64,000 nt of DNA from Planctomycetota bacterium (GTDB lineage Bacteria > Planctomycetota > UBA8742 > UBA2392): NCBI GenBank assembly GCA_020638675.1, contig JACKID010000001.1:2051261-2115260 (forward strand), in the 5' to 3' direction. The position numbers were made by a program, and so were the translations under genes. Below the pieces are notes generated by a model. The model saw only the letters and a program-made list of their open reading frames with translations. It was not told where the DNA came from and ran no database searches. Positions 2,001 through 50,155 of the stretch are shown one piece after another (within the stretch, counting starts at the first letter, position 1; each line of letters begins with the position of its first letter).

Positions 2001-3071
2001 ATGCTGCGTCGGATGAAGATAATGGCGCTGGCCGTCGCCAGCCTGATCACAATCGGTGTGCTGACCCCATCACACGAAACCAGCCAGAACGCGCCCGCGA
2101 AAGAAAGCGGCGATCCGCTCCCGAAAGCTCCAGTGCGAAACTGGGGAGACTGGTGGCCGGAGACCCAGTTCGGCGAAGACGACTCGGTTACTACAGATCA
2201 GATTCGCGCCGGCGACCGCACCTTTGAGCGAGTGGTGTACGGGGCCATAAGTACTCCATGGAACGGCTGCCTTGCCAATTTCTCCCACTCAGAGGCCGGT
2301 GACGGTTTGCGTTTCGACCTCTTGTGGAGCCGCCCGGGTGACTTCGCCTCCAAAGAGGAGAAGGACGCCTTCAAATCGCCCAAACAGGGCGACATCAGAG
2401 CTGCCATCGTGAGGGGAGACAAGGTCATCGCTGAGCCAACTAACGGCGAACCAGCGATTTCCGCATGGGCAGGCGGCAGTCTCGGAATGACGGGCGACAT
2501 GATGATCTTCTTCGATTGGCTGCCCGCAGACTTTGAAGACTATTGGATTCGGGTCGACATGCTGAAGGAGAGGCACTGGTTCCTGATCCCTTATGGGCTC
2601 GGATCCAACCCAAAGGAGAACGCGGGCCTAGAACTCGTCGAACGAGGCGGCCCTGAACAACCGCAGGCTGCGCAGAAGGCCGACCGTCTCCATCTTTGGA
2701 ACAGTGTTGGGTATGAACTCGGCTGGGTGAAGGAGGAGGGCTGGCATGTCTCGGCTTCGGTTTCCAACCCCTTCGACACAGAAATCCGGATTCACGTGTA
2801 CGAAGACGGCGCGCGTTGGGAACTCAGCTACCCGCGAACTTCGGCCGTCTATAACTGGCCGGCTGGTTATTCACGATTCTGTTCGTGGACGTCAATCTCG
2901 CGCGCAGATTCCATCGACTACTCGCGCACAGACACGTTCAAGTTCTGGCGAACGCCGTTTGATACTCGCAACTGGGGCCTCCTGCGGGTGACTGTGGAAG
3001 ACCACGCATTCGACAAGGTCGTACCCAGTAGTCTGTTCAACTACACACACAATTGGCTAGAGAAGAAGTAG
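2001..3071 (+). CDS. Secreted hypothetical protein (signal peptide, Trp-rich)
   Basis: 356 aa; N-terminal signal peptide MKIMALAVASLITIGVL; no recognisable domain; many W, D and E residues. Wedged between tktB and the convergent gpsA. Confidence 0.55.
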   Translation: MLRRMKIMALAVASLITIGVLTPSHETSQNAPAKESGDPLPKAPVRNWGDWWPETQFGEDDSVTTDQIRAGDRTFERVVYGAISTPWNGCLANFSHSEAGDGLRFDLLWSRPGDFASKEEKDAFKSPKQGDIRAAIVRGDKVIAEPTNGEPAISAWAGGSLGMTGDMMIFFDWLPADFEDYWIRVDMLKERHWFLIPYGLGSNPKENAGLELVERGGPEQPQAAQKADRLHLWNSVGYELGWVKEEGWHVSASVSNPFDTEIRIHVYEDGARWELSYPRTSAVYNWPAGYSRFCSWTSISRADSIDYSRTDTFKFWRTPFDTRNWGLLRVTVEDHAFDKVVPSSLFNYTHNWLEKK

Positions 3072-4719: not shown

Positions 4720-6557
4720 GCCTTCGCCGGGGTGAGTGTGCGCGCGTAGCGGGTCAGCTCGCTGATCATTTCGTAGCGGTTCATCGGCGTGATCATGTAG
4801 AAGCCCTGCACCTCGGGCGCGATCTCTTGCATCAACTCTTTGCTGATCTTTACGCCTTCCGCACGCCCGCTTTCGCCGCGCTTGCCTTTCATGCGCTCGC
4901 GAATGTCCTCGGGCACGTCGATGCCGGGAACCTCGTGGTGAAGGAAATCGGCGTTGCGTTCACTGACCAGTGGCATGATGCCAAGAATCAACGGAACGCC
5001 GAGCGGCCTCGCGGACTCGGTCACGCGTCGGGCCGTGGCGATATCAAACACCGGCTGCGTCATGATGAACCTGGCGCCCGCCTGCACCTTCCGCTGAAAG
5101 CGTTTGACCTCGTTCTCCAGCCGCAATGACGCACAGTTGAACGCGCCGCCGACGAAGAAGTTGGTGGGGGAATTGCCGTCACGCCCCGTCGCGAATTCGC
5201 CCTTGTTGAAGCGCGAGATCATCTCGATCAGCTTGTGGCTGGCCATGTCGAACACGCCGCTGCTGCCCTTGTAGGCCTGCGTGGCGACCGGGTCGCCGGT
5301 CACGGCGAGGATGTTGGTAATGCCCATCGCGTAAGCACCCAGCAGGTGCGACTGGGTGCCGATCAGGCTGCGGTCACGGCAAGCGATGTGAAGCACGATG
5401 CGCGCATCGACCTGCTGCATGAGCAGCCCGGCAAACGCGAGGTTGCTCATGCGCATGATGCTGAGCGCGTTGTCTGCAATGGTGATGGCGTCGGCGCCGG
5501 CCTTCACGACTTCGGCGGCGCCTTTCAGTTCGCCCGTTGCATCGAATCCGCGCGGAGGGTCCACTTCGGCAATCACGATCCTGCGGGTCTTCAGATCCCC
5601 TTCGAGCGTCGGCTGCAATTTCAGAGGCTCGGAGGGCTTGGCCTTCTGTGCGGGCTCAGCGGCTACGCGCAGGTGACGCATCGACGGCTTGCGCGCGCTG
5701 ACCTGGCCCTTGAGTTTGCGGATGTCCTCAGGCGTCGTGCCGCAGCAGCCGCCGATCAGGTTGGCGCCAAGGTCGGCCAGGCGACGCGCGCTGCGGGCGA
5801 AGTAGTCGCTGCTTTCGATGTAGATCGGCCGTCCGTGATCGTCGAAATCCGCAAGACCGCGGTTGGGGTAGATGCTGATCGGCTTCTCCGTCAGCTCGAC
5901 CAGACGCTTGCAGACTTCAATGGCCGCGCTCTCGCCGCCGCCGCAGTTGGCGCCGATGACGTCGACCGGCTGCCTGTCCAGCTCGCGGACCATGCGCTCG
6001 GGTGAAATGCCCGTGGTGGTCGTGCCTGCAAGTGTGAACGCCATCTGCGCGATCAGCGGCGTCCCGGGGGCGACGGCGCGCACAGCCGCAATGGCAAACA
6101 GCAGCTCGGAGAGGTCGGGAAAGGTCTCCAGCAGGAGGGCGTCGACGCCGCCCTCAACCAGTCCCGTGACTTCTTCCTTGAAGCACTCGCGGCGCTCGTC
6201 GTCGGTGAGCTTGTTACTGGAGCGGAACAGCGGGCCGATAGCTCCCACGACATAGGCGCGGTCGCCGGCAACCTGCCTGGCCAGCTCCGCGCCGGCCTTG
6301 CAGACGTCATGGCTTGTGACATTGGCTTCGGCCGCTGCGAGTGCCATGCGGTCGGCGCCGAAAGTGTTGGTCTCGATTACGTCTGAACCTGCGTCGAGGT
6401 ATTCCTGGTGCGCGGCAATCACGAAGTTCGGCTTGGCGAGGTTCAGCACTGGCCCGATGCCGCCGCCCGCCACGAGCCCGCGACTTGCCAGCAAGGTGCC
6501 GTACGCCCCGTCACCAACGAGGACCTTCTTCCTGAGTGCTTCGAGAAACGGCTCCAT
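4716..6557 (-). CDS. Bifunctional homocysteine S-methyltransferase domain / 5,10-methylenetetrahydrofolate reductase (YitJ-like MetH-N/MetF fusion)
   Basis: 613 aa. The N-terminal half has Hcy-binding (S-methyltransferase) motifs including the zinc-ligand cysteines (ANCGG, GGCCGTT). The C-terminal half is MetF-like (MTHFR). Confidence 0.8.
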   Translation of the reverse strand: MEPFLEALRKKVLVGDGAYGTLLASRGLVAGGGIGPVLNLAKPNFVIAAHQEYLDAGSDVIETNTFGADRMALAAAEANVTSHDVCKAGAELARQVAGDRAYVVGAIGPLFRSSNKLTDDERRECFKEEVTGLVEGGVDALLLETFPDLSELLFAIAAVRAVAPGTPLIAQMAFTLAGTTTTGISPERMVRELDRQPVDVIGANCGGGESAAIEVCKRLVELTEKPISIYPNRGLADFDDHGRPIYIESSDYFARSARRLADLGANLIGGCCGTTPEDIRKLKGQVSARKPSMRHLRVAAEPAQKAKPSEPLKLQPTLEGDLKTRRIVIAEVDPPRGFDATGELKGAAEVVKAGADAITIADNALSIMRMSNLAFAGLLMQQVDARIVLHIACRDRSLIGTQSHLLGAYAMGITNILAVTGDPVATQAYKGSSGVFDMASHKLIEMISRFNKGEFATGRDGNSPTNFFVGGAFNCASLRLENEVKRFQRKVQAGARFIMTQPVFDIATARRVTESARPLGVPLILGIMPLVSERNADFLHHEVPGIDVPEDIRERMKGKRGESGRAEGVKISKELMQEIAPEVQGFYMITPMNRYEMISELTRYARTLTPAKA

Positions 6558-6597
6558 GCGGACTCCGGCGAACGTTGCGCGAGTATATGAGCGCGCG

Positions 6598-7740
6598 TCA
6601 AGCTTCCAAGCGCACGTAGCGCTTGCCGGGCAGGGCCTTGGCGAGGCGCTTCATTTCGAGGGTGAGCAGGCCGCTGCTGATCTGCGCGGCGGGCAGGCTG
6701 GTTTTGCCCATCAGCTCATCGACGGTCAGGCCGTCGCTGGGCATCAGCACTTTCCACAACGCGGCCTCAGTGGGGGACATGCCTTGTGGCGTGGCGCTTG
6801 CCCGCTTCTCCGGCGCCTTTTCCTCGGGCAGCAACTTGAGCATCTCGAGGCCTTCGTAAACGTGCTCCGGCTCAGCGACGAGGTGCGCGCCTTCGCGGAT
6901 CAGGTCGTGGGGGCCCTGGCTGAGGTCGCTGTCGACTTTGCCCGGCAGTGCGAAGACCTCGCGGCCTTGCTCGGCGGCGAGGCGCGCGGTGATCAATGAG
7001 CCGGACTTGCGCGTGGCCTCGACCACGAGAACGCCGAGGCTAAGCCCGGAGATGATCCGGTTGCGCTGCGGGAAGTTGCGCGCGCGCCCGGGCGTGTGCA
7101 GGGGGAACTCGCTTACGACCGCGCCATTCTCGGCAATCTCCAGCGCGAAGCGGTCGTTCTCGGGCGGATAGATGTCCAACAGTCCGCTTCCCACCACGGC
7201 GATTGTTCGGCCGCCGGCATCCAGCGCGGCGCGATGCGCGGCTGTGTCGATCCCCCGAGCCAGGCCGCTCACGACGGTGACCCGGCGAATGGCAAAGTCG
7301 CGGGCGAAGCGCGCGGCCTGCGCGGTGCCGTAATAGCTGGCGCTGCGGCCACCGACGATGGCGAGCGACAGGTCGTCGTGTGAAGTGATTTCGCCACGGA
7401 CGTAGAGCAGCGGCGGCGGGTCATCGATGCGCTTGAGGATCTGCGGGTATGCCTTGTCCTCGAGCTCAAGCAGCTTGACTCCGTGCTTCTCGCACTCTTC
7501 CAGCTCGCGGAGGTGGTCGCCCTTGCGGATGACCTCCGCCAGCGCCTCCGCCCCTTGCTTGTTTACCTTCGGGACCTTGTTGAGTTCGCTCTTTGGGGCC
7601 GCGACGATGCCGCTCGCGCTGCCGAATCGCTTCAGCAGGTTCGCGACACCCAGCGGCGTGAACTTCTGCGCCACCGCCAGCGCGACTTTCGCCTCGATCT
7701 CACGCATGTGACCGGCCCAGCAGGGTTGCCGCGAGTGCAT
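6598..7740 (-). CDS. dprA: DNA processing protein DprA (Smf)
   Basis: 380 aa; DprA Rossmann-like core (LAIVGGRSASYYG, VVSGLARGIDTAAHRAAL, TIAVVGSGLDIYPPEN, FPQRNRIISGLS) plus a C-terminal winged-helix-like tail. Start uncertain (Met1 or Met12). Confidence 0.85.
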   Translation of the reverse strand: MHSRQPCWAGHMREIEAKVALAVAQKFTPLGVANLLKRFGSASGIVAAPKSELNKVPKVNKQGAEALAEVIRKGDHLRELEECEKHGVKLLELEDKAYPQILKRIDDPPPLLYVRGEITSHDDLSLAIVGGRSASYYGTAQAARFARDFAIRRVTVVSGLARGIDTAAHRAALDAGGRTIAVVGSGLLDIYPPENDRFALEIAENGAVVSEFPLHTPGRARNFPQRNRIISGLSLGVLVVEATRKSGSLITARLAAEQGREVFALPGKVDSDLSQGPHDLIREGAHLVAEPEHVYEGLEMLKLLPEEKAPEKRASATPQGMSPTEAALWKVLMPSDGLTVDELMGKTSLPAAQISSGLLTLEMKRLAKALPGKRYVRLEA

Positions 7741-39237: not shown

Positions 39238-39456
39238 CCCCGCGCCCGTTAAGCGGGGGTGACATTCGGGGCATCGGGACGCGGGCGTGCGGCCCCGCCA
39301 AACCACATCGCGCGACCAGTCCGACGAAGCTTCAGCGAAGGCGGAAGACGCGGCAAACAGCCAAAGCAACCATAGGTAAACACCGGTGAACAAGTGAATG
39401 GATGTTCACCGATGGTTGCGTTGGCCGTTGCACTACTTCGCTTCAAGCGGAGCCAA

Positions 39457-39531
39457 GGGGACTATCCCGGAAGTTCGGGACTGTCCCCGTTCTCAAAAGC
39501 TCTAAGTCAAACGACTACGGGGACCGTCCCG
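39457..39531. promoter_or_regulatory. Array of three GGGAC-N(1-2)-GTCCC palindromes (operator-like) in a convergent intergenic region
   Basis: ggggactatcccgg (39457-39470), cgggactgtccccg (39476-39489) and cggggaccgtcccg (39518-39531). Two are perfect 5+1+5 palindromes; centre-to-centre spacings are ~19 and ~42 bp. Confidence 0.4.
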
Positions 39532-39550
39532 TACCGGTGAAGTCCCCTTG

Positions 39551-40018
39551 CTACGCCGCGGCCGACTCGACCGGCGGAGAGGCCTCCATCCTCTCCTGTT
39601 TCCAGTCGTTGAGCGCGTCCATGGCTTCAGCCAGGAAGGCGTCGAGCTGTTCCGCCTGCTTCAGCGACGGCTCGTTGACCGCCTTCGCCGGCGCGCTGTC
39701 GAACGGCTCGGAGATCAGGCCGCGCTCGAGCAGCACTTCCTCAATGCACGTTTGCATCAGCTCGACCTTGCGTTGCTGCTGGCGCTCGAGGTCTTTCTGC
39801 GCGCGCAGCCCGACGCTGGGGGCGATGCGCCAGCGGTACGGCTTGTCGAACGGCAAAGTCGCGACGTGGTCCAGCTCGCGCTCGTGCTCGGCCAGCACCT
39901 TGCGGTCGCGGGCGATGGCGCGGTCAATGTCCTCGCCGCCCAGGTTCAGGTAAAGCTCATTGAGTTCCCGGCGGATCGCATCCTGCTCTTCGGCCGGAAG
40001 TTTCGAAGGATCAAACAT
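39551..40018 (-). CDS. Hypothetical protein (coiled-coil, charged)
   Basis: ORF 39551..40057 taken from internal Met14 (MFDPSKLPAEEQ...); no domain; weak support. Confidence 0.4.
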   Translation of the reverse strand: MFDPSKLPAEEQDAIRRELNELYLNLGGEDIDRAIARDRKVLAEHERELDHVATLPFDKPYRWRIAPSVGLRAQKDLERQQQRKVELMQTCIEEVLLERGLISEPFDSAPAKAVNEPSLKQAEQLDAFLAEAMDALNDWKQERMEASPPVESAAA

Positions 40019-40250
40019 GTCGTGTCTCCGTGTGTGGTTGCTGAAACAAGTATCCACACCGGTGCGACATTCTAGGCCGATTTAAGGCCAACCCGGATGC
40101 CAACCAACGCCCACAGAGCCTTATTTAGAGGGCTTCACGGGCGCCACAAAGGTTTTTTCGGGCTATTTTCGGGCAGCCAAAAAGGGGCTCGTCCGCGTAG
40201 CGCACATTCCGTCATCTCCCAATCAGCTGCTACTGACCCGCCGGTTGGGC

Positions 40251-41234
40251 CTAAGGCTTAGACTTGATAATCCAGTTAACCGATACGTTTGTCGGTCGAG
40301 TCTCAGCATCCCCACCCTTGCCGATGATGTGTGAATGTGCTCCTGCCGTTTCGGTAACCACTGACTCGTTGCTAGGGTAGCCATACTCTCGATCAATGGA
40401 AATTCGAGAGACAGAACCTAGGTTGATGTTTTCTCCGACCAACTTTCTGCTTGTGTAGTTCGACCAGAATATTGCGGTCTCCAAGACTAGTGAGTTACTG
40501 GAGCCCCTTGGCAAGTCTTCTGACCTCACGAACGGCTCGTCCCGCGGGGAAAACAGCGAGTGGTTGTGTGCTCCACCTTCGTTAGTTTCAAACTTCTTGA
40601 GGGGCATCGCCGTACTACCCCTTTGACGGCTACCTACTACATCTCCAACCTGAGCCCCCGAGCCGCTGGTCCTTTTCGCAGCCTCTAAATCAATACCCGC
40701 ACCGCTATCTACACCACGCAAAAACTGGCCGCGAAGATCGGGAATGTTGAACATTGCTGTGTTACCAGCACCATTGCCATGGGTGACGCCGATGGCGGCG
40801 TATAGCTCTGCGTACTCATCCATGCGGATCGCGCGCCCGTCACAAAGCAGCCAGCCAGTGGGTATGTTATTGGCTGGTCCAGAAAATGCCGTCACAGCGC
40901 CAACGGGGACGCCGGTGAGCTCCTGCGCCAGAGCCTTCCTGGCCAGCTCGTCCTCGCTAATGGCCCGCCCAATGGACTTAGCGGTCAGATCCTCTCGCGC
41001 CGACTTCATCTCCTTGTCATAGCGGTCAAGAACTTCTTGCTTTTGCATTGCGAGATCCAGCTCCAGCCCTGCCTTTATGCTGCTGTAGCCCGACCAGCCC
41101 GCGAGACCAAGCGCGGTTAGAAAAACTCCGAAGTAGATCATCGCACGATTTATCCATGCGTGGCACGCATCTCGGACCGCCAATAACTGCGAGGCGGATA
41201 ACTCCTCACCCTTCTTTTCGATCTTCTCAGTCAT
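40251..41234 (-). CDS. Membrane-anchored phage tail collar domain protein (MdpB/microcystin-dependent-protein-like)
   Basis: 327 aa; N-terminal TM helix (MIYFGVFLTALGLAGW) and coiled coil, then Phage_Collar signature (IPTGWLLCDGRAIRMDEYAELYAAIGVTHGNGAGNTAMFNIPDLRGQFLRG), GGAHNHSL / AGAHSHII repeats and a tail-fibre-like C-terminus (PTNVSVNWII). Local GC content is visibly lower than the surroundings. Confidence 0.75.
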   Translation of the reverse strand: MTEKIEKKGEELSASQLLAVRDACHAWINRAMIYFGVFLTALGLAGWSGYSSIKAGLELDLAMQKQEVLDRYDKEMKSAREDLTAKSIGRAISEDELARKALAQELTGVPVGAVTAFSGPANNIPTGWLLCDGRAIRMDEYAELYAAIGVTHGNGAGNTAMFNIPDLRGQFLRGVDSGAGIDLEAAKRTSGSGAQVGDVVGSRQRGSTAMPLKKFETNEGGAHNHSLFSPRDEPFVRSEDLPRGSSNSLVLETAIFWSNYTSRKLVGENINLGSVSRISIDREYGYPSNESVVTETAGAHSHIIGKGGDAETRPTNVSVNWIIKSKP

Positions 41235-41258
41235 CTACGTTCTAGCCTCCCTTTGCGC

Positions 41259-41765
41259 TCAGTCGTCTTCCCAAAGCCAGGCGAGCCGTGCGCGGTCAGT
41301 TGTGGTAACCCGATTCCAGCCCGTCTCATCTCTTAGTTCGTTCCAAAGTTCGATGAGTTCGTCTCTCGCTGAGATGCACTCTTGAAGAGCGATCTGATGA
41401 TCCGCGTGGCCAATAATGCCGGAAGTCAGGCGCAACCGATTGACCTCAATGTCGTTCTCGAGTTGAGCGAGCTTTTGGCAAAACGGGATCCAGCTCTTGG
41501 TCGGCCAGACGTCCTTCTGTACGTCCGGGCGATTGAGGTTCATGCCAATGCGGTGTCGGTATCTTGCATACTTGCTGACATCCTGTTGAAGTTCGTCCCA
41601 CGCGAGAACATCCTTTGCGAACTCGTTGGACTCTCGTTGATCAAGGAACGTGAAACCGGTGAGAACGGCGCTGGCCACCGAAATCACGATAGCGATGGCC
41701 GCCATCCATCGCTCTATCGACCAACCTGAGTTCTTCTTTTCACTCATGCGATGATTGTAGCCCAT
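41259..41765 (-). CDS. Hypothetical membrane-anchored protein (partner of the tail-collar protein)
   Basis: 168 aa; one TM helix (WMAAIAIVISVASAVLTGF); same strand, 24-nt gap to the tail-collar gene; low-GC region. Confidence 0.45.
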   Translation of the reverse strand: MGYNHRMSEKKNSGWSIERWMAAIAIVISVASAVLTGFTFLDQRESNEFAKDVLAWDELQQDVSKYARYRHRIGMNLNRPDVQKDVWPTKSWIPFCQKLAQLENDIEVNRLRLTSGIIGHADHQIALQECISARDELIELWNELRDETGWNRVTTTDRARLAWLWEDD

Positions 41766-42073
41766 ATAGGGTATGTGCGACGATTACAATCGGAAGCAAC
41801 GCTGGTAGCACGCCAGAATCGAACTCGCACCAAGGAAGCGCTCGTGATGGGATGATGCCCCTTGTTGCTCACGATGGGGCCCCCAAGCCAAGACCCGGGG
41901 CTCCAGTGGGCTATTATCTACCGCCCCTGCCTTGCCGTCGGTTGCGCCGGTCATATACTTCCCGCCCCTTCGGTGACGTGTTTCCGGGTGTGTGCCTGGG
42001 CGTTGCTGGAGACACATCAGAGCCCGGCCGTGCGTGGCTTGCCGCGTCCGAAGTCGGGATCAGGAACCCTTAC

Positions 42074-43777
42074 ATGTCATCATTGCGTGCCATCAATCCG
42101 CTCATCCGTCGCTACGGACCGAAGTCAGAAGTCGTCGAAGCGGAACTCGATTCAATCTGGAAAGAACCGTCGCTTGAGGACATGGTCCCGAGCGCACGCC
42201 ACTTCAGCGAAGACTCGCTGGTCAAGGGCCGTGTCATCACCGCCGAAAAGGACCGCGTCATCGTCGACATCGGCGCCAAGACCGTCGGCATCATCGACGC
42301 ACGCGAGTTCTCGGCCGACGAGGACAAGCCAAAGGTCGGCGACGAAATCACCGTCCTGATCGAAGAGCTTGAGAACGATGACGGCCTCATCGGGCTGTCG
42401 AAGCGCAAGGCCGACCGCAAGATCAACTGGGAAACCGTCGTCGCCAAGCACAAGGAAGGCGACACCGTCCGCGGCAAGGTCACCAAGAAGATCAAGGGCG
42501 GCCTGCTGATCGACATCGGCGTGCCCGCGTTCCTGCCGGCCAGCCAGGTCAGCATTCGCCGCACCCGCGACATCAACGAGTTCATCGGCGACGAGCTGGA
42601 ATGCGAGATCATCAAGATCGACCAGGCCCGCGAGAACATCGTCGTCAGCGCCCGCAAGCTGCAGGAGCGCAACCGCGAACGCCTCAAGGACGCGCTGCTC
42701 AGCGAAATCGAGGAAGGCCAGCTGCGCGAGGGCGTGGTCAAGAACATCGCCGACTTCGGCGCGTTCGTTGACCTCGGCGGCATCGACGGCTTGCTGCACA
42801 TCACCGACATGACCTGGGGCCGCATCCAGCACCCGAGCGAAGTGGTCAAGATCAACGAGACGGTCAAGGTGAAGGTGCTCAAGGTCGACCGCGACCGCGA
42901 GCGCATCGCGCTGGGCATGAAGCAGCTTCACGACAGCCCGTGGAAGGGCATCGCCGAGCGCTACCCGGTCGGCTCACGCCACCAGGGCAAGGTTGTCAAC
43001 ATCATGTCCTACGGCGCTTTCATTCGCCTCGAGGAGGGCATCGAAGGCCTGGTCCACGTCAGCGAAATGAGCTGGACCAAGCGCGTCAACGACCCGCGCG
43101 AAGTCGTGCAGCTTGGCGACGACGCGGAAGTCATCATCCTAGGCGTGAACGAGGAAAAGCAGGAAATCAGCCTCGGTATGAAGCAGCTTGAGGACAACCC
43201 GTGGGACAAGGTCAGCGCCAAGTACCAGCCGGGCGCCAAGGTCAAGGGCGTCGTGCGCAACCTGACCACCTACGGCGCGTTCATTGAGATCGAGCCGGGC
43301 ATCGACGGGCTGCTGCACGTCAGCGACATGAGCTGGACCCGCAAGGTCAGCCACCCGAACGAGATGGTCAAGAAGGGTGACGAAGTCGAGTGCGTGGTGC
43401 TGGCGGTCGACACCGACAAGCACCGCATCGCGCTGGGCATGAAGCAGCTCAAGACCGACCCGTGGGAAGACGAGATTCCGGAGCGTTTCTCGGTCGGCAC
43501 CGAAATGGAAGGCACGATCACCAAGATCACCAACTTCGGCGTGTTCGTAGAGCTGGACAACGAACTCGAAGGCCTGCTGCACATCAGCGAGCTCGCGGCC
43601 GAGGGCGGCGACAAGCCGGAAGAAGTCGTGAAGGTCGGCGAGAAGATCAAGGTCAAGGTGATCAAGCTCGACCCGAAGGAGCGCAAGATCGGGCTTACGG
43701 CGTCTGATTTCGAGGGCAGCGAAGGCGAAGTCGGCGGCACGACCCCGGCCGACGATTCCGACGCAAGCGCCGAATAG
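42074..43777 (+). CDS. rpsA: 30S ribosomal protein S1 (six S1 domains)
   Basis: 567 aa from ATG 42074 inside ORF 41852..43777; repeated S1-domain motifs (G.V..I...G.F..L..G..GL.H.S...W). Confidence 0.9.
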   Translation: MSSLRAINPLIRRYGPKSEVVEAELDSIWKEPSLEDMVPSARHFSEDSLVKGRVITAEKDRVIVDIGAKTVGIIDAREFSADEDKPKVGDEITVLIEELENDDGLIGLSKRKADRKINWETVVAKHKEGDTVRGKVTKKIKGGLLIDIGVPAFLPASQVSIRRTRDINEFIGDELECEIIKIDQARENIVVSARKLQERNRERLKDALLSEIEEGQLREGVVKNIADFGAFVDLGGIDGLLHITDMTWGRIQHPSEVVKINETVKVKVLKVDRDRERIALGMKQLHDSPWKGIAERYPVGSRHQGKVVNIMSYGAFIRLEEGIEGLVHVSEMSWTKRVNDPREVVQLGDDAEVIILGVNEEKQEISLGMKQLEDNPWDKVSAKYQPGAKVKGVVRNLTTYGAFIEIEPGIDGLLHVSDMSWTRKVSHPNEMVKKGDEVECVVLAVDTDKHRIALGMKQLKTDPWEDEIPERFSVGTEMEGTITKITNFGVFVELDNELEGLLHISELAAEGGDKPEEVVKVGEKIKVKVIKLDPKERKIGLTASDFEGSEGEVGGTTPADDSDASAE

Positions 43778-43981: not shown

Positions 43982-45289
43982 ATGCAGCTACTTCGACCGG
44001 CCACACTTCTGCTGATTGCGTTGTTGTCCGCGCCTGCGTGGGCCGCGCTGGTTGAGTCCCAATTCCCCGGCAAGACGGAAGACGCAGTGGCGGCCGAGTT
44101 CGAGGCCGGCTTGCCCGCATGGCTTCAGGCGCGCCTCAAAGAACCGGCCAAGCCGCAGATGTACACGCTCGACGGCAAGACCGAGGTGTTCGTTGAATTG
44201 ACGGCAATCGACGGCTCCAACACCACCTGGATGACGCTGGTTCGTGTGGGCTGGATAGCCGAGACGAATCGCTACGGTTGGGGCCCCTACGGCAAGGAGT
44301 ACAAACTCGCGTTGGCGGACATTCCGGCACGCGAAGTCGCCGGCTGGTTCGTGCCTAAATTCCGCACGCCACAGGAGATTGTCGCGCTCGCGTGCTGGCT
44401 GGCGTCGAAGGGCGAGCAGCTTGAAGCGAACGCAAAGTTGGCGGGTCTGGCAGCCGTCAAGGAAGACCTGAAGAAGGACGCAGAGGCCTGGGTCGCCGCA
44501 AAGAACGGCTGGACCGTCCCGGCGGACGGGCTGATGATCGTCGAGACCCACGACCTTGAGCGCAACGAAGACGGCATGCTGTTCCAGACCAAAGCCGCGA
44601 ACGCGGAACGGCTCAAGGAACTCGACAAGGAAGCAAAGAAAGCCTTCAAGGAACTCGAGAAGCTGCAGGGTCTGGACGTAAAGAGCAAGCCGGGCTACCG
44701 CAAGAATTCGCCGGGAATGCGGCTCGTGATCCTGCAGGATTACGTCGATCGCTTCGAGCGCCGCTATGCCGGAACAAGTTTCATGGAAAAGAAGGGCACC
44801 AAGGAAGACCTCGACGATATCCGCGCGGCGATCAAAGCCGACCTCGAATACGTCGAGACCGAGAAATACAAGGCCGAGCGTTCCGGCATCGACGGGGACT
44901 GGCACGCCGCCGCCGAAGCCTACGACGTGATTCTGCGCGTCGACCCTTTGAATCCTGACCTAGTACTCGCGACGGCCGAGGCGTTCAGCAAAGCAGCCAA
45001 GATCACCAACGGCGCACGCAATGCCGAAGACCCGGCGTCGGCGAAACGCGCAGCGTTGTTGTATGAGCGATTGCTGGAGATCTACCCGAAGGCACTGGGT
45101 TTTCATAACCATGCGGGCGTAAACTGGCTGGCCGCCGCCAGCGACAGCAAGGTGGCTTCCGATGGCAAGAAACGGGCGAAGGAACACCATGAGGAGGTGA
45201 TCCGCCGCACGGACAACCGCAGCGACCTGTCAGAGAGTGAAAAGAGCAATCGTGAATACGCCGAAGGCCAACTGAAGCTGATCAAGTGA
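43982..45289 (+). CDS. Secreted hypothetical protein, paralog 1 of a tandem family (N-terminal conserved domain, K/E-rich coiled coil, TPR-like C-terminus)
   Basis: 435 aa; signal peptide LLIALLSAPAWA; shares architecture and motifs (IVALACWLASKGEQLEAN...) with the next two genes. Confidence 0.6.
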   Translation: MQLLRPATLLLIALLSAPAWAALVESQFPGKTEDAVAAEFEAGLPAWLQARLKEPAKPQMYTLDGKTEVFVELTAIDGSNTTWMTLVRVGWIAETNRYGWGPYGKEYKLALADIPAREVAGWFVPKFRTPQEIVALACWLASKGEQLEANAKLAGLAAVKEDLKKDAEAWVAAKNGWTVPADGLMIVETHDLERNEDGMLFQTKAANAERLKELDKEAKKAFKELEKLQGLDVKSKPGYRKNSPGMRLVILQDYVDRFERRYAGTSFMEKKGTKEDLDDIRAAIKADLEYVETEKYKAERSGIDGDWHAAAEAYDVILRVDPLNPDLVLATAEAFSKAAKITNGARNAEDPASAKRAALLYERLLEIYPKALGFHNHAGVNWLAAASDSKVASDGKKRAKEHHEEVIRRTDNRSDLSESEKSNREYAEGQLKLIK

Positions 45290-45360
45290 GGAAGCAGCTT
45301 CGGTTGCGGCAAACAACCTGTTTGTTACCTTTGACAATCAGGGACTGAGGAGGAGAGGAA

Positions 45361-46704
45361 ATGAGGAGCATCAACACAGCCCTGCTCGCGGCATTGGTTT
45401 GCGCCGGCTTTGCGGGCACTTTGCTGGCCGACCCCAGCGAAGACCTGTTCAGCAAAACCCACAAAGGCGCCAAGGAAGCCAAGGTCGCCTCTGACTGGTA
45501 TGACGCGCTGCCGGCGTGGGTGAACTCGCTGACGAGCAAAAACAACTTCCCGGTAACGCACCTGCCCTACGAGATCGTGAAGGGCAAGCTGAAGAACTCA
45601 AAGGTAGTGAACAAGTTCGAAATCCGCGACGCCAACGCCAAGCAGTTCAGCGCCTATCTCATGGTGCTCAACGGGACAGACGCCAACGGTCTGCCGGTCT
45701 ACGAAAAGACTAACGACTACGGCTGGCTTGCCTGGAAGGGCTGGCCCGCCAAGTACATCGTCGAGACCTATCCCGTCGAGGCCAACACTGACACGGCGAC
45801 CCTCGTGGCATTTGGCGCCTGGCTGTACGGCGAGAAGGAAAACGAGCTCGCCAACCGGGTGCTTACGGTCGCGCATGAGAAGGACAAGGAGCTCGCCCCG
45901 CTGATCGAGGCCTACATCTGCGACAAAGAGAAGTGGGAACTCCCGGCGACCGGCATGCAGCTCTGGAACGCGTGGGACGCGGAATACCAGAAAGAACGCG
46001 CGATTCTCGTAACTCCCGAAGAGCACGAGAAGCGCCTCAAGGAGCGCGAGAAGTCGGCTGAATCCGAATTCAAAGCCATCGTCGACGCGCGCGGCGACTA
46101 CAAGGGACGCCCGCCCCGCCGCAAGGTTCCGACCAAGCAACTGGTCCTGCTGCAGTGGGAGATCAAGCAGTACAAGATCGCCTACGCCTCGGCCGACTTC
46201 TTCAAGGACAGCAAGGTCACGGACAAGCTGCAGGAGATCACAGACTCAATCACCGACGACCTCGCGCTGATCAAGGACAACATGGAAGTCGCCCGCAACA
46301 TGGGCGCAGACGGTGATGCCAACGAGCTCAAGAAGAAGGCCGAGTTCCTGGAAGAAGTCCTGAAGATCGACCCGGAAGACCTGAATCTGCGCAGCCAGGT
46401 CGGCAACGCGTGGTACATCTGGGGCAACCCGGCGCCGCACGGCAACAGCTGCGACCGTGCAGACGGCATGAAGAAGGCCATCCCGCACTACGAAATCATC
46501 ATCAAGGCTTACCCGAGTAACACGTCGTTCCTGCTGGCTCTCGGGCGCTGCTACCAGGCGCTGGAAGACAGCAAGCACGCACGCGTCTACTACGAGAAGG
46601 TGATCGAGATCGACGGCACCAAGGGCAACGCGGTGACCGCCAAGGCCCTGATCCGAAACATGGACATGGCCGACCAGACACGCGCCAAGAACGGCGGAAA
46701 GTAG
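45361..46704 (+). CDS. Secreted hypothetical protein, paralog 2 of the tandem family
   Basis: 447 aa; signal peptide; ETYPVEANTDTATLVAFGAWLYGEKENELANRVLTV aligns with paralog 3 (TTYPVATNPDTQDVIAFAVWLYLNADDPMIANRVLTV). Confidence 0.6.
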   Translation: MRSINTALLAALVCAGFAGTLLADPSEDLFSKTHKGAKEAKVASDWYDALPAWVNSLTSKNNFPVTHLPYEIVKGKLKNSKVVNKFEIRDANAKQFSAYLMVLNGTDANGLPVYEKTNDYGWLAWKGWPAKYIVETYPVEANTDTATLVAFGAWLYGEKENELANRVLTVAHEKDKELAPLIEAYICDKEKWELPATGMQLWNAWDAEYQKERAILVTPEEHEKRLKEREKSAESEFKAIVDARGDYKGRPPRRKVPTKQLVLLQWEIKQYKIAYASADFFKDSKVTDKLQEITDSITDDLALIKDNMEVARNMGADGDANELKKKAEFLEEVLKIDPEDLNLRSQVGNAWYIWGNPAPHGNSCDRADGMKKAIPHYEIIIKAYPSNTSFLLALGRCYQALEDSKHARVYYEKVIEIDGTKGNAVTAKALIRNMDMADQTRAKNGGK

Positions 46705-46712
46705 ACTGCAAC

Positions 46713-46745
46713 GGGGCCCGGGAAGCCGGGCCCCGACTGTTTTCT
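46713..46745 (+). terminator. Rho-independent terminator after paralog 2
   Basis: Hairpin ggggcccgggaagccgggcccc followed by gactgttttctg. Confidence 0.6.
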
Positions 46746-46823
46746 GAAATAGTGCGTAGCGCAAAGCAACCAAGCGTCACTTATCTGCAGCGCCCCCTCG
46801 GCCGACCCCTTCGCGGCTGAACC

Positions 46824-48041
46824 ATGACTCGCTCTCTGATTGTGCTTCTCGTGCTGGCACTCGCGGCACCGCTGTTCGCGAGCGGGCTGGTTGAGAAGGT
46901 CTTCGCGCGCAAGATCGCCGACGACTGGTACAAGCACTTCCAGGACTACGTCGAAGGGCAATGCAAAGCCGGGAAGTACCCGGAGACCTGGTTCGAGGGC
47001 GCGGACGGCACGCTGCAACTGTTCCGGATCCAATCCGTCAGCGACGGCAAACTGATCACCTTTGAACTGGTCGAGGCCGCCGACGCCAAGGGCAACATCA
47101 GCCGCAGCCCCGCCAAGGAATCGACCACATTCGAGTGGTCACAGTGGCAACCGAGATTCATCGCCACCACCTATCCGGTGGCGACGAACCCGGACACGCA
47201 GGACGTGATCGCGTTTGCCGTATGGCTCTATCTCAACGCCGATGACCCGATGATTGCCAATCGCGTGTTGACCGTCGTCTACGAAGCCAATCCGGACATG
47301 CGCGACGACATCACGGACTTCGTCCGCGAGCACCACGCCTGGTCACCCAAGGACAAGCTGGCGGTGGGGGAGATGTGGGACGAAGTCTTCGCCAAGTGGC
47401 GCCGCGTGCTGCTGCCCAAGAAAGAAGCAGAGCAACTGGAGAAGGACCGCAGCAAGGAGTGCAAGGCCGTTTCCACACTGCTGGACGAATACCGCAATGC
47501 GGAAGCCCGCACACTCACGCTCGCGCAGATTGCCTATGGGCTGCGCGAATGGCGCAAGAAGCACGGCGCTTCCGACACTGGCTCAAAGTATCTCAAAGAC
47601 GTAGAAGCCGTGCTGGACTCCATCAGCACCGACCTCAAGAATGTGGAAACACTCGTCGCCCTGGCTGACGGCGGCGCAAAAGCCGCCAAGCCCCAATGGG
47701 ACGCCGTCGCCAAGGACTATGAGAAAGCGCTTGCGCTCGACAATCGCGACGCGCGCCTGCTTTCCCTCACGGCCGACGCATGGCGCAAGCACGCGAACCC
47801 CGAAGTCGTCGGCGGCCAGTTCAAGTGCACACAGGAACACTCGGCCCGCCGCGCGCTTGAGCTGTACGAACGTTGGCACGAAAGCGAGCCGACCAACTAC
47901 AAGGTCGTGCTGAACATGGCCGTCTGCAACCACGTAATCGGACAGCGCAACGACGCGCGCAAGCTGTATCAAAGAGTGATCGACGAGAGCGAAGACGCGG
48001 CGCTGATCAAGCAGGCCCGCGACTACGACAAACTGCCCTGA
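46824..48041 (+). CDS. Secreted hypothetical protein, paralog 3 of the tandem family
   Basis: 405 aa; signal peptide LIVLLVLALAAPLFA; conserved ANRVLTV block and TPR-like C-terminus shared with paralogs 1 and 2. Confidence 0.6.
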   Translation: MTRSLIVLLVLALAAPLFASGLVEKVFARKIADDWYKHFQDYVEGQCKAGKYPETWFEGADGTLQLFRIQSVSDGKLITFELVEAADAKGNISRSPAKESTTFEWSQWQPRFIATTYPVATNPDTQDVIAFAVWLYLNADDPMIANRVLTVVYEANPDMRDDITDFVREHHAWSPKDKLAVGEMWDEVFAKWRRVLLPKKEAEQLEKDRSKECKAVSTLLDEYRNAEARTLTLAQIAYGLREWRKKHGASDTGSKYLKDVEAVLDSISTDLKNVETLVALADGGAKAAKPQWDAVAKDYEKALALDNRDARLLSLTADAWRKHANPEVVGGQFKCTQEHSARRALELYERWHESEPTNYKVVLNMAVCNHVIGQRNDARKLYQRVIDESEDAALIKQARDYDKLP

Positions 48042-49521: not shown

Positions 49522-50155
49522 CCCCCGGTGGAGCGAAGCGAAACCGGGGGAATTCGTCGCCATCGGAATCCCGAGCCGGCTTGCCGGCGGCTCTCGTGTG
49601 GGCGCGGGCCCTCCCGCCCGATATCATCCGGTCATGGCCCACACGTACACGCGGCAGTTGCTTCATATCGTGTTCAGCACGAAGGACCGCCGTCCGCACC
49701 TTACGCCTGACAGACGCCCGCGCATGCTCGGCTATCTGCGTACGGTTTCCGAGGACCTTGGCGTCACGTTACTCCGATCAAACGGCGTTGAAGATCATGT
49801 ACACCTGCTGATCGACCTGCCGGCGTCGCTCAGCACGGCCGAGTTCATGCAAAAGCTGAAGGCCAATTCATCGCGCTGGTTTCGCAAGCAATTCACCGCT
49901 GTCGATTTTCACTGGCAGCGCGGCTACGGCGCGTTCAGTGTCAGGGAATCGAAGGCCGCCGACGTGTGTGGCTACATCGACCGGCAGGAACAGCATCACA
50001 AGAAGAGTTCGTTTGAAAACGAACTTCGCAAGCTTGTAGCAAGCCACGGGCTGGAGTTTGACGAACGCACCTTCCTTGAGTGATGAGTCGCCGGCAAGCC
50101 GGCTCGGGTCCGTTCTTACCTGCATACCCCCGGTTCCGCTGCGCTTCACCTGGGG
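49522..50155 (+). mobile_element. REP-associated tyrosine transposase (RAYT) unit with flanking inverted repeats
   Basis: Left side: hairpin cccccggtggagcgaagcgaaaccggggg (49522-49550) and cccgagccggcttgccggcggctc (49570-49593). Right side: gagtcgccggcaagccggctcggg (50085-50108), an inverted copy of the left repeat, and cccccggttccgctgcgcttcacctgggg (50127-50155), a near-inverted copy of the left hairpin arm. These enclose the RAYT gene. Confidence 0.7.
49634..50083 (+). CDS. IS200/IS605-family Y1 transposase, REP-associated (RAYT/TnpA-REP)
   Basis: 149 aa from Met13 (MAHTYTRQLLHIVFSTKDRRP); HuH motif DHVHLLI; Y1 catalytic Tyr near the C-terminus (GYGAFSV...Y). Confidence 0.8.
   Translation: MAHTYTRQLLHIVFSTKDRRPHLTPDRRPRMLGYLRTVSEDLGVTLLRSNGVEDHVHLLIDLPASLSTAEFMQKLKANSSRWFRKQFTAVDFHWQRGYGAFSVRESKAADVCGYIDRQEQHHKKSSFENELRKLVASHGLEFDERTFLE

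Follow-up and report, generated by a model that had tools for sequence, protein, structure and literature searches.

How does a gene for a protein of the phage tail-collar type come to lie beside rpsA in a planctomycete chromosome, and what might its product do there? The locus in question is part of a stretch of 64,000 nucleotides from a Planctomycetota bacterium (assembly GCA_020638675.1, contig JACKID010000001.1, positions 2,051,261 to 2,115,260 of the forward strand), hereafter called the window, whose own coordinates are used throughout. A preliminary description had pointed there to an islet of low guanine plus cytosine (G+C) content with two genes, one for a small membrane protein of 168 amino acids (aa) and one for a membrane-anchored tail-collar protein of 327 aa. 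On the compositional, comparative and structural evidence presented here, we consider it rather probable that this islet is an inserted two-gene operon, which encodes a membrane-anchored module resembling the receptor-binding part of T4 gp12 and facing the periplasm, together with a membrane partner.

Its composition sets the islet apart from the surrounding chromosome segment. The window as a whole has 62.6% G+C, and the interval 40060-41800, with 54.5%, is the minimum of all equally long stretches within its 64 kb (same-length stretches elsewhere: mean 62.8%, standard deviation 1.6%; z = -5.2). The low-G+C islet is thus real, although the background measures about 63% and not the 65% or so first estimated. 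G+C at third codon positions (GC3) is 0.60 in the collar gene and 0.64 in the 168-aa gene, compared with 0.77-0.88 in eight neighbours, and by a log-odds score of codon usage trained on 60 window genes the two are again outliers (z = -5.5 and z = -3.7, respectively), all other genes scoring higher. Uniform G+C and codon-usage statistics, named at the outset as what would speak against a foreign islet, were not seen. A contig of 2.5 kb from an independent assembly of run SRR12358676 is identical to the window over the collar locus, and NCBI holds an identical 327-aa protein on a 3.09-Mb contig, under the name 'MAG: tail fiber protein [Planctomycetes bacterium]'.

Comparison with syntenic loci of related Planctomycetota metagenome-assembled genomes (MAGs), fetched with rpsA as probe, delimits the insertion to within a few bases. 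In six relatives (L002-L006 and L011; rpsA 85-94% identical), crcB is followed by rpsA after only about 30-200 bp, and the slot between the two holds no trace of the collar gene, of the 168-aa gene or of up168, the gene that borders the islet on its left; DMT, DAO oxidoreductase and PHP genes were also detected upstream of crcB in most of the six. A seventh relative, the sister MAG L087 (GCA_020638605.1), has the order crcB, an up168 orthologue (66% identity), glyoxalase, AraC/GyrI-like regulator and rpsA. In blastn against this genome, homology ends at window position 40160 and restarts at 41924, so that 40161-41923 (1763 bp) is specific to the window; L087 carries 1663 bp of other genes in its place. 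Homology to L010, L003 and L002 restarts at 41922-41954. The specific DNA has 54.9% G+C, against 62.9% in the remaining window. The interval 40060-41800 first proposed for the islet therefore captured a genuine low-G+C stretch, with the true edges lying about 100 bp further right. On that side, the promoter-like site of rpsA abuts the islet from outside; rpsA itself starts at 42074, divergent from the 168-aa gene and separated from it by 308 bp, in agreement with the earlier placement of the small membrane-protein gene next to rpsA.

Related Planctomycetota MAGs differ in the cargo that they carry between crcB and rpsA (39238-42073 in the window), which makes this intergenic space a variable slot. 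The outlying composition and codon usage, the absence of the segment from six relatives and its replacement by other genes in the seventh bear out the suggestion of horizontal acquisition: they show the islet to be foreign DNA inserted into the slot between up168 and the rpsA promoter, and the acquisition is recent. Slots in two other genomes were also inspected. That of L010 holds a single gene for a 184-aa membrane protein (773-1327), and that of L066 a single 183-aa open reading frame (ORF; 6277-6828), which is MOSC-like by eye only.

The means of insertion left no recognizable mark. No integrase, transposase, tRNA or flanking repeat marking the islet was found, a search for direct repeats resembling attachment (att) sites around it gave nothing above chance-level matches of 11-23 nt, and no recombinase or repeat was found that would account for the turnover of the slot. 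A tRNA-linked integrative island was considered and rejected, since ARAGORN and Rfam find only a tRNA-Val at a distance of 12 kb and there is neither integrase nor flanking repeat; a permissive Rfam scan of 39500-42400 returned chance matches only. A plasmid origin was likewise discarded, the islet having no blastn match in PLSDB. Inside the islet, by its right edge, lies a tRNA-like string (41804-41891, minus strand) ending in ...GGTGCGAGTTCGATTCTGGCGTGCTACCA. For ARAGORN to report it, the threshold has to be lowered to 80% of the default, the anticodon is then an odd ATC, and Rfam is silent; we regard it as noise, although it may be a decayed donor att site or tRNA fragment rather than a chance match.

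Two minus-strand ORFs fill the islet, the 168-aa gene first and the collar gene second, 24 bp apart; their number, sizes and common orientation are as originally described. Because of the short gap, the shared strand and a Shine-Dalgarno-like sequence before the second gene, the arrangement looks operon-like. A search for homologous two-gene cassettes, which the preliminary description had proposed, revealed no recurrence: the 168-aa protein has no homologue, including beside the collar genes of the fetched loci.

The second gene carries the part of the islet that can be assigned with most precision. Pfam Collar (PF07484) matches residues 112-172 over its entire length (profile positions 1-57 of 57; E = 1.8e-15, 57.1 bits against a cut-off of 24), and PHROG tail-fibre families match as far as residue ~326, the PHROG and Pfam matches beginning at about residue 70-110. 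Two HxH motifs follow the collar segment, AHNH at residues 222-225 (HxH at 40560-40568) and AHSH at 299-302 (HxH at 40329-40337), and the protein ends in ...ETRPTNVSVNWIIKSKP. In phmmer, both ends of the module match the T4 gp12 structure 1OCY, the C-terminal AETRPTNVSVNWIIKSK being aligned to gp12 NETRPWNISLNYIIKVK. The C-terminal return strand, ETRPxNxxxNWIIK, is thus present, and P314 and N316 within it are invariant across 71 homologues. A profile of these 71 sequences spans chain residues 5-197 of the 198 in 1OCY (E = 1.2e-22), and the first HxH of the family falls on the H-K-H of gp12 at chain positions 116/118 (+329, that is 445/447), His445 and His447, the zinc ligands of gp12 on its trimer axis. 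An AlphaFold model of the monomer, built on the 71-row alignment, has a mean predicted local distance difference test score (pLDDT) of 71 and is confident for residues 110-200 and the last strand. Its top Foldseek matches in the PDB are gp12, the gp37 tip and the fibre of cyanophage A-1(L) (probability 1.00), with C24 of Bizionia also retrieved, and about 100 viral collar proteins match it in BFVD. By alignment, then, homology between residues 108-327 and the gp12 receptor-binding domain runs over the full length of both, and the canonical Phage_Collar domain, HxH repeats and NWII end of the preliminary description are all confirmed. The HxH motifs would form a putative metal site by alignment to gp12, and by analogy the protein is most likely homotrimeric. 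Phage homologues of the module number in the hundreds at ~30-34% identity, and are as distant as the cellular ones.

The N-terminal 107 residues have neither a fibre shaft nor a baseplate-attachment region. They consist of a 26-residue hydrophilic tail, a hydrophobic segment at residues ~27-47 and predicted helices. Averaged on the Kyte-Doolittle scale, the segment reaches 2.0 in a 15-residue span and 1.46 in one of 19. Of the N-terminal transmembrane (TM) anchor claimed earlier, the hydrophobic segment thus stands; it is only moderately hydrophobic, and is probably a signal anchor. From this arrangement we infer an N-in/C-out (type II) topology, which would place the module in the periplasm. 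Two observations make an extracytoplasmic location plausible: a signal or anchor is present at the N-terminus of 74 of the 120 closest homologues, and the partner protein follows the positive-inside rule.

Could the collar gene be no more than the debris of a phage? Its C-terminal module is a bona fide receptor-binding domain of tail fibres, with those hundreds of phage homologues, and the islet is foreign in composition, both of which are compatible with the remnant of a decayed prophage, tailocin or contractile-injection system, in which an orphan tail-fibre gene would persist with no present function. The surroundings argue otherwise. Pfam scans of 46 proteins across the 64 kb gave most of them a clear metabolic, transport, biosynthetic or ribosomal assignment (e.g. 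his genes, sucC, an AcrB-type pump, rpsA, a cytochrome c protein and fatty-acid oxidation enzymes) and a few no hit, and detected no phage structural, tail, baseplate, tailocin, lysis or integration gene. The flanks are housekeeping genes that remain syntenic with the relatives right up to the islet edges. The statement that no other phage genes are present here therefore holds over the whole window, and the adjacent prophage that would have made this an ordinary tail-fibre gene was not found; with a non-uniform composition and no prophage alongside, the original observation stands. Moreover, both ORFs are intact, a membrane anchor occupies the place of the baseplate- or fibre-attachment domain, and similar anchored homologues are solitary in other genomes. 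A phage or tailocin remnant thus appears unlikely to us.

The homologues of the collar protein, studied as the 120 best database matches, place it among bacterial proteins of a known kind. Self-hit aside, none exceeds 42% identity. With the query counted, 74 carry an N-terminal hydrophobic segment, which lies at the extreme N-terminus in 58, as is typical of signal peptides or lipoproteins, and further in for the other 16. Among the latter, P0016, P0069, P0089 and P0119 show the order tail, TM segment, spacer and collar; the gene for P0069 stands by itself, its neighbours being housekeeping genes (sulfatase, lactonase, riboflavin synthesis). The earlier view that an anchored, free-standing collar protein is out of the ordinary cannot be upheld in the face of these 74 homologues, of the several that share its layout and of P0069, which stands alone. 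The closest homologue (P0002, 38% identity) is one of two collar genes in tandem; a DDE transposase lies nearby, and the contig has 54.9% G+C. A gene that also encodes 168 aa lies beside P0002 and was examined as a possible counterpart of the islet partner; the two are unrelated.

Many of these homologues are named 'microcystin-dependent protein' or 'rhizosphere induced protein' by their sources. Since about 60% of the closest homologues bear export or anchor signals and several stand alone among housekeeping genes, the protein belongs, as far as module, context and hydrophobic segment indicate, to the cellular tail-collar class (COG4675/MdpB, RhiB), to which it is a divergent addition. In the literature we found little on a characterised function of cellular collar proteins beyond three cases: RhiB, encoded in the Rhizobium rhiABC operon, carries a collar domain (PMC13133039); collar paralogues of Solibacter are under positive selection (PMC3174227); and collar proteins of virophages have been reported to bind lipopolysaccharide (LPS; PMC12724248). 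C24 of Bizionia argentinensis, the tip of a prophage long tail fibre, is described as a phage receptor-binding tip (PMC11821841). One homologue has a neighbourhood of its own kind: P0089 (L085, 8001-16241), in which an N-terminus that looks like a helix-turn-helix (HTH) by inspection only precedes the TM segment and the collar module, is followed by a second collar gene and then by a gene for a 2007-aa toxin of the SpvB/TcdB/RHS type. Such a context is a hint that toxin loci may use collar modules for targeting or sensing.

The first gene of the islet is an ORFan. Its product has a strong TM segment at residues 21-42 (Kyte-Doolittle 2.27), with flanking charges of +2 before and -2 after it (N-in), which agrees with the single-TM protein first described; an alternative start at Met21 would give 148 aa. 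A word-indexed search of 5.8 billion clusters returned only the protein itself, an exhaustive phmmer search of 1.84 billion representatives added three spurious hits to very long proteins, and phmmer against all ORFs of the 167 fetched loci gave no match. Nothing meaningful was found in Pfam, PHROGs, PADLOC or NCBIfam, the best PHROG match (E = 0.077) being to families without known function. The single-sequence AlphaFold model is all-helical (pLDDT 68), and its fold matches are generic four-helix bundles, all with E > 0.05. The codon-position pattern of the ORF is GC3 > GC1 > GC2.

Two further explanations turn on this partner. The best of its non-significant fold matches are periplasmic sensor four-helix bundles, and together with P0089 and its HTH-looking segment, TM segment and collar module they might recall a membrane-tethered sensor, in which the collar module would bind a periplasmic ligand and a Tar-like bundle of the partner would signal. 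We judge this very unlikely: the cytoplasmic tails of ~26 and 20 residues contain no recognisable output domain, and the fold matches, at E > 0.05, come from a single-sequence model of pLDDT 68. Alternatively, the pair could be what is left of the lysis or late region of a phage, with an i-spanin-like protein beside a tail-fibre gene. The architecture of the 168-aa protein, an N-in TM segment and a helical periplasmic domain of ~125 residues, does resemble that of Rz-type i-spanins. Yet the gene strand has no lipobox ORF in 40100-41950 and hence no o-spanin candidate, there is no holin or endolysin, and no spanin was hit among the PHROGs, so that this origin seems extremely improbable.

We therefore return to the inserted operon with its tethered gp12-like module, for which the following scheme can be proposed. 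A foreign segment of 1.76 kb entered a permissive intergenic slot with the rpsA promoter on one side and, on the other, up168 and its neighbour crcB. Its second gene would yield a type-II anchored protein that presents, outside the cytoplasm and on a helical spacer, a complete gp12-like collar plus head. By analogy with gp12 and with fibre tips, the heads would form a trimer stabilised by a metal ion in the HxH motifs. T4 gp12 binds the LPS core; the trimer may similarly bind an envelope carbohydrate (LPS, peptidoglycan or another glycan) from the periplasmic side, glycan binding by the head being an extrapolation from that analogy. The first gene would provide an ORFan single-pass protein with a periplasmic helical bundle, probably an assembly factor or partner subunit, and we infer the partnership of the two proteins from their joint layout. 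A surface adhesin, as also suggested earlier, is less likely than a periplasmic glycan binder, because a spacer of ~55-60 residues would keep the head in the periplasm if the anchor lies in the cytoplasmic membrane.

Several points weigh against this scheme. The anchor is moderately hydrophobic (19-residue mean 1.46) and lies between flanks of nearly neutral charge, so the topology of the collar protein is uncertain, and the segment could instead be a signal peptide that has a long n-region and is cleaved off. The coiled-coil stalk of the preliminary description is not borne out: the spacer consists of predicted helices whose heptad pattern is weak. The AlphaFold model is a monomer, the trimer resting on analogy with fibre tips, and residues 240-290, the variable part of the head, have a pLDDT below 50. 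Finally, as the 168-aa gene has no homologues, its reality rests on ORF length, G+C pattern and operon-like position.

A protective role against phages must also be weighed, either by masking or mimicking a receptor or by sensing phage parts, with the ORFan as effector or partner. Such a phage-exclusion or defence cassette would accord with the recent gain of a two-gene islet that includes an ORFan and sits in a variable slot, as accessory or defence cargo typically does, and with a phage-derived domain that would face the envelope. On the other hand, PADLOC-DB v2 contains no family matching the collar protein, the 168-aa protein or up168 at E <= 0.1; no defence genes are in the neighbourhood, and the slot otherwise holds metabolic or regulatory cargo; neither protein has a detected nuclease, protease or pore-former domain; and the cassette is not recurrent, its partner being without homologue. 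A defence function is thus improbable. In a more specific version, which we hold to be quite improbable, the domesticated receptor-binding domain would be a tethered guard or decoy facing the periplasm, which with the ORFan would block or sense infection. If this were true, the ligand of the domain would be either a receptor glycan of the cell itself or a part of an incoming phage, and the islet would represent a two-gene exclusion system of a kind not described before, travelling as mobile cargo.

The locus is a clean example of gene gain in an uncultured planctomycete, with edges known to within a few bases and with both empty and alternatively filled sites in relatives, and its cargo is a phage receptor-binding domain re-used outside the virion. 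Common as they are, cellular tail-collar proteins (MdpB, RhiB and unnamed homologues by the hundred) have no established function; anchored single-copy cases such as this one are handy starting points for asking what collar domains bind in the bacterial envelope. What is distinctive here is the sharply delimited insertion into a slot of differing cargo and the ORFan partner. The finding overturns nothing, and it rests on a single MAG and a partner that is an ORFan. The features are listed in the table.

Table. Positions of the islet, its genes and parts, and the adjoining features (window coordinates)
Feature	Position	Strand	Basis
Genome-specific inserted islet, 1763 bp, 54.9% G+C	40161..41923		blastn against L087; relatives L010, L003, L002
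168-aa ORFan, predicted single-pass membrane protein	41259..41765	-	TM segment, residues 21-42 = 41640-41705
Shine-Dalgarno-like GGGAGG, 11 nt upstream of the collar ATG	41246..41251	-	read from the sequence
327-aa tail-collar protein, probably membrane-anchored	40251..41234	-	ORF; Pfam Collar; PHROG; NCBI 'tail fiber protein'
Hydrophobic segment, probable signal anchor, residues ~27-47	41094..41156	-	Kyte-Doolittle; within AlphaFold helix 14-41
Predicted helical spacer (stalk), residues 53-107	40914..41078	-	AlphaFold helices 53-89 and 94-107, pLDDT 60-82
gp12-like collar and head module by homology, residues 108-327	40254..40913	-	phmmer and profile against 1OCY; Foldseek
rpsA promoter-like site TTGCCG-16-TATACT	41932..41959	+	promoter scan; kept in relatives
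up168 (NCBI H6839_09035, 155 aa from Met14)	39551..40057	-	GC3 0.84; 66%-identical L087 orthologue at the same position

To the left of the islet, up168 was considered as a possible part of it and rejected, since its composition is native and L087 carries an orthologue in the corresponding position. The gene has no Pfam, PHROG or NCBIfam hit and is one of a small, lineage-specific multicopy family: its genome encodes at least three paralogues at 60-65% identity, and another homologue (L168) was noticed among unrelated housekeeping genes. Between the convergent crcB and up168 lie nested inverted repeats (39454-39550) with 18-nt arms at 39473-39490 / 39517-39534 (89% complementary) and 17-nt arms at 39454-39470 / 39534-39550. 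They look like a shared terminator region, for which a simple terminator scan made no call. Downstream of rpsA, three consecutive paralogues of ~405-447 aa (43982-48041, plus strand), two of them with C-terminal tetratricopeptide repeat motifs, form a tandem array that is also found in related MAGs with varying similarity between copies. No mobile-element gene was detected in the 64 kb other than an IS200-like Y1 transposase (49598-50083, plus strand; Pfam Y1_Tnp, E = 6e-26), which is ~8 kb from the islet and has no evident link to it. At the far left, a 356-aa ORF (2001-3071, plus strand) without Pfam or NCBIfam match lies in the region of second-lowest G+C in the window (58.7%) and has the lowest codon-usage score among the 60 otherwise native-looking genes, about 3 standard deviations under their mean. 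It is a second candidate for foreign origin.

How does the islet protein compare with characterised systems? C24 (6OV6) and the gp37 tip (2XGF) have in common with it a collar-type fold with HxH metal sites, in those tips on the trimeric axis, and Foldseek retrieves both at E = 2e-6 to 4e-3 and ~19-22% identity; they are, however, virion fibre tips encoded in phage or prophage genomes. T4 gp12 (1OCY/1H6W, PF07484), the top structural match, shares the collar segment, the HxH and the ETRPxN..NYIIK strand, whereas its long fibre shaft and baseplate part are replaced in the islet protein by the 26-residue tail, the probable anchor and ~55 helical residues. The head insert (~240-290) is also unrelated to that of gp12 and longer, and the gene lies in a bacterial chromosome without phage genes. 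COG4675 MdpB and RhiB are likewise encoded by free-standing bacterial genes, for non-virion, often exported proteins with a collar/HxH module. Their typical members have ~180-300 aa and a cleavable signal peptide or lipobox, and often form tandem arrays; the islet protein instead has an uncleaved-looking anchor after its 26-residue tail, occurs as a single copy in the window, is paired with an ORFan and reaches at most 38-42% identity to any homologue. A parallel design is seen in P0016, P0069, P0089 and P0119, which are metagenomic or MAG proteins. Their spacers range from ~25 to 120 residues and no homologue of the 168-aa gene adjoins them, but all four share with the islet protein the same succession of an N-terminal segment, a single TM segment at ~40-90, a spacer and a C-terminal collar.

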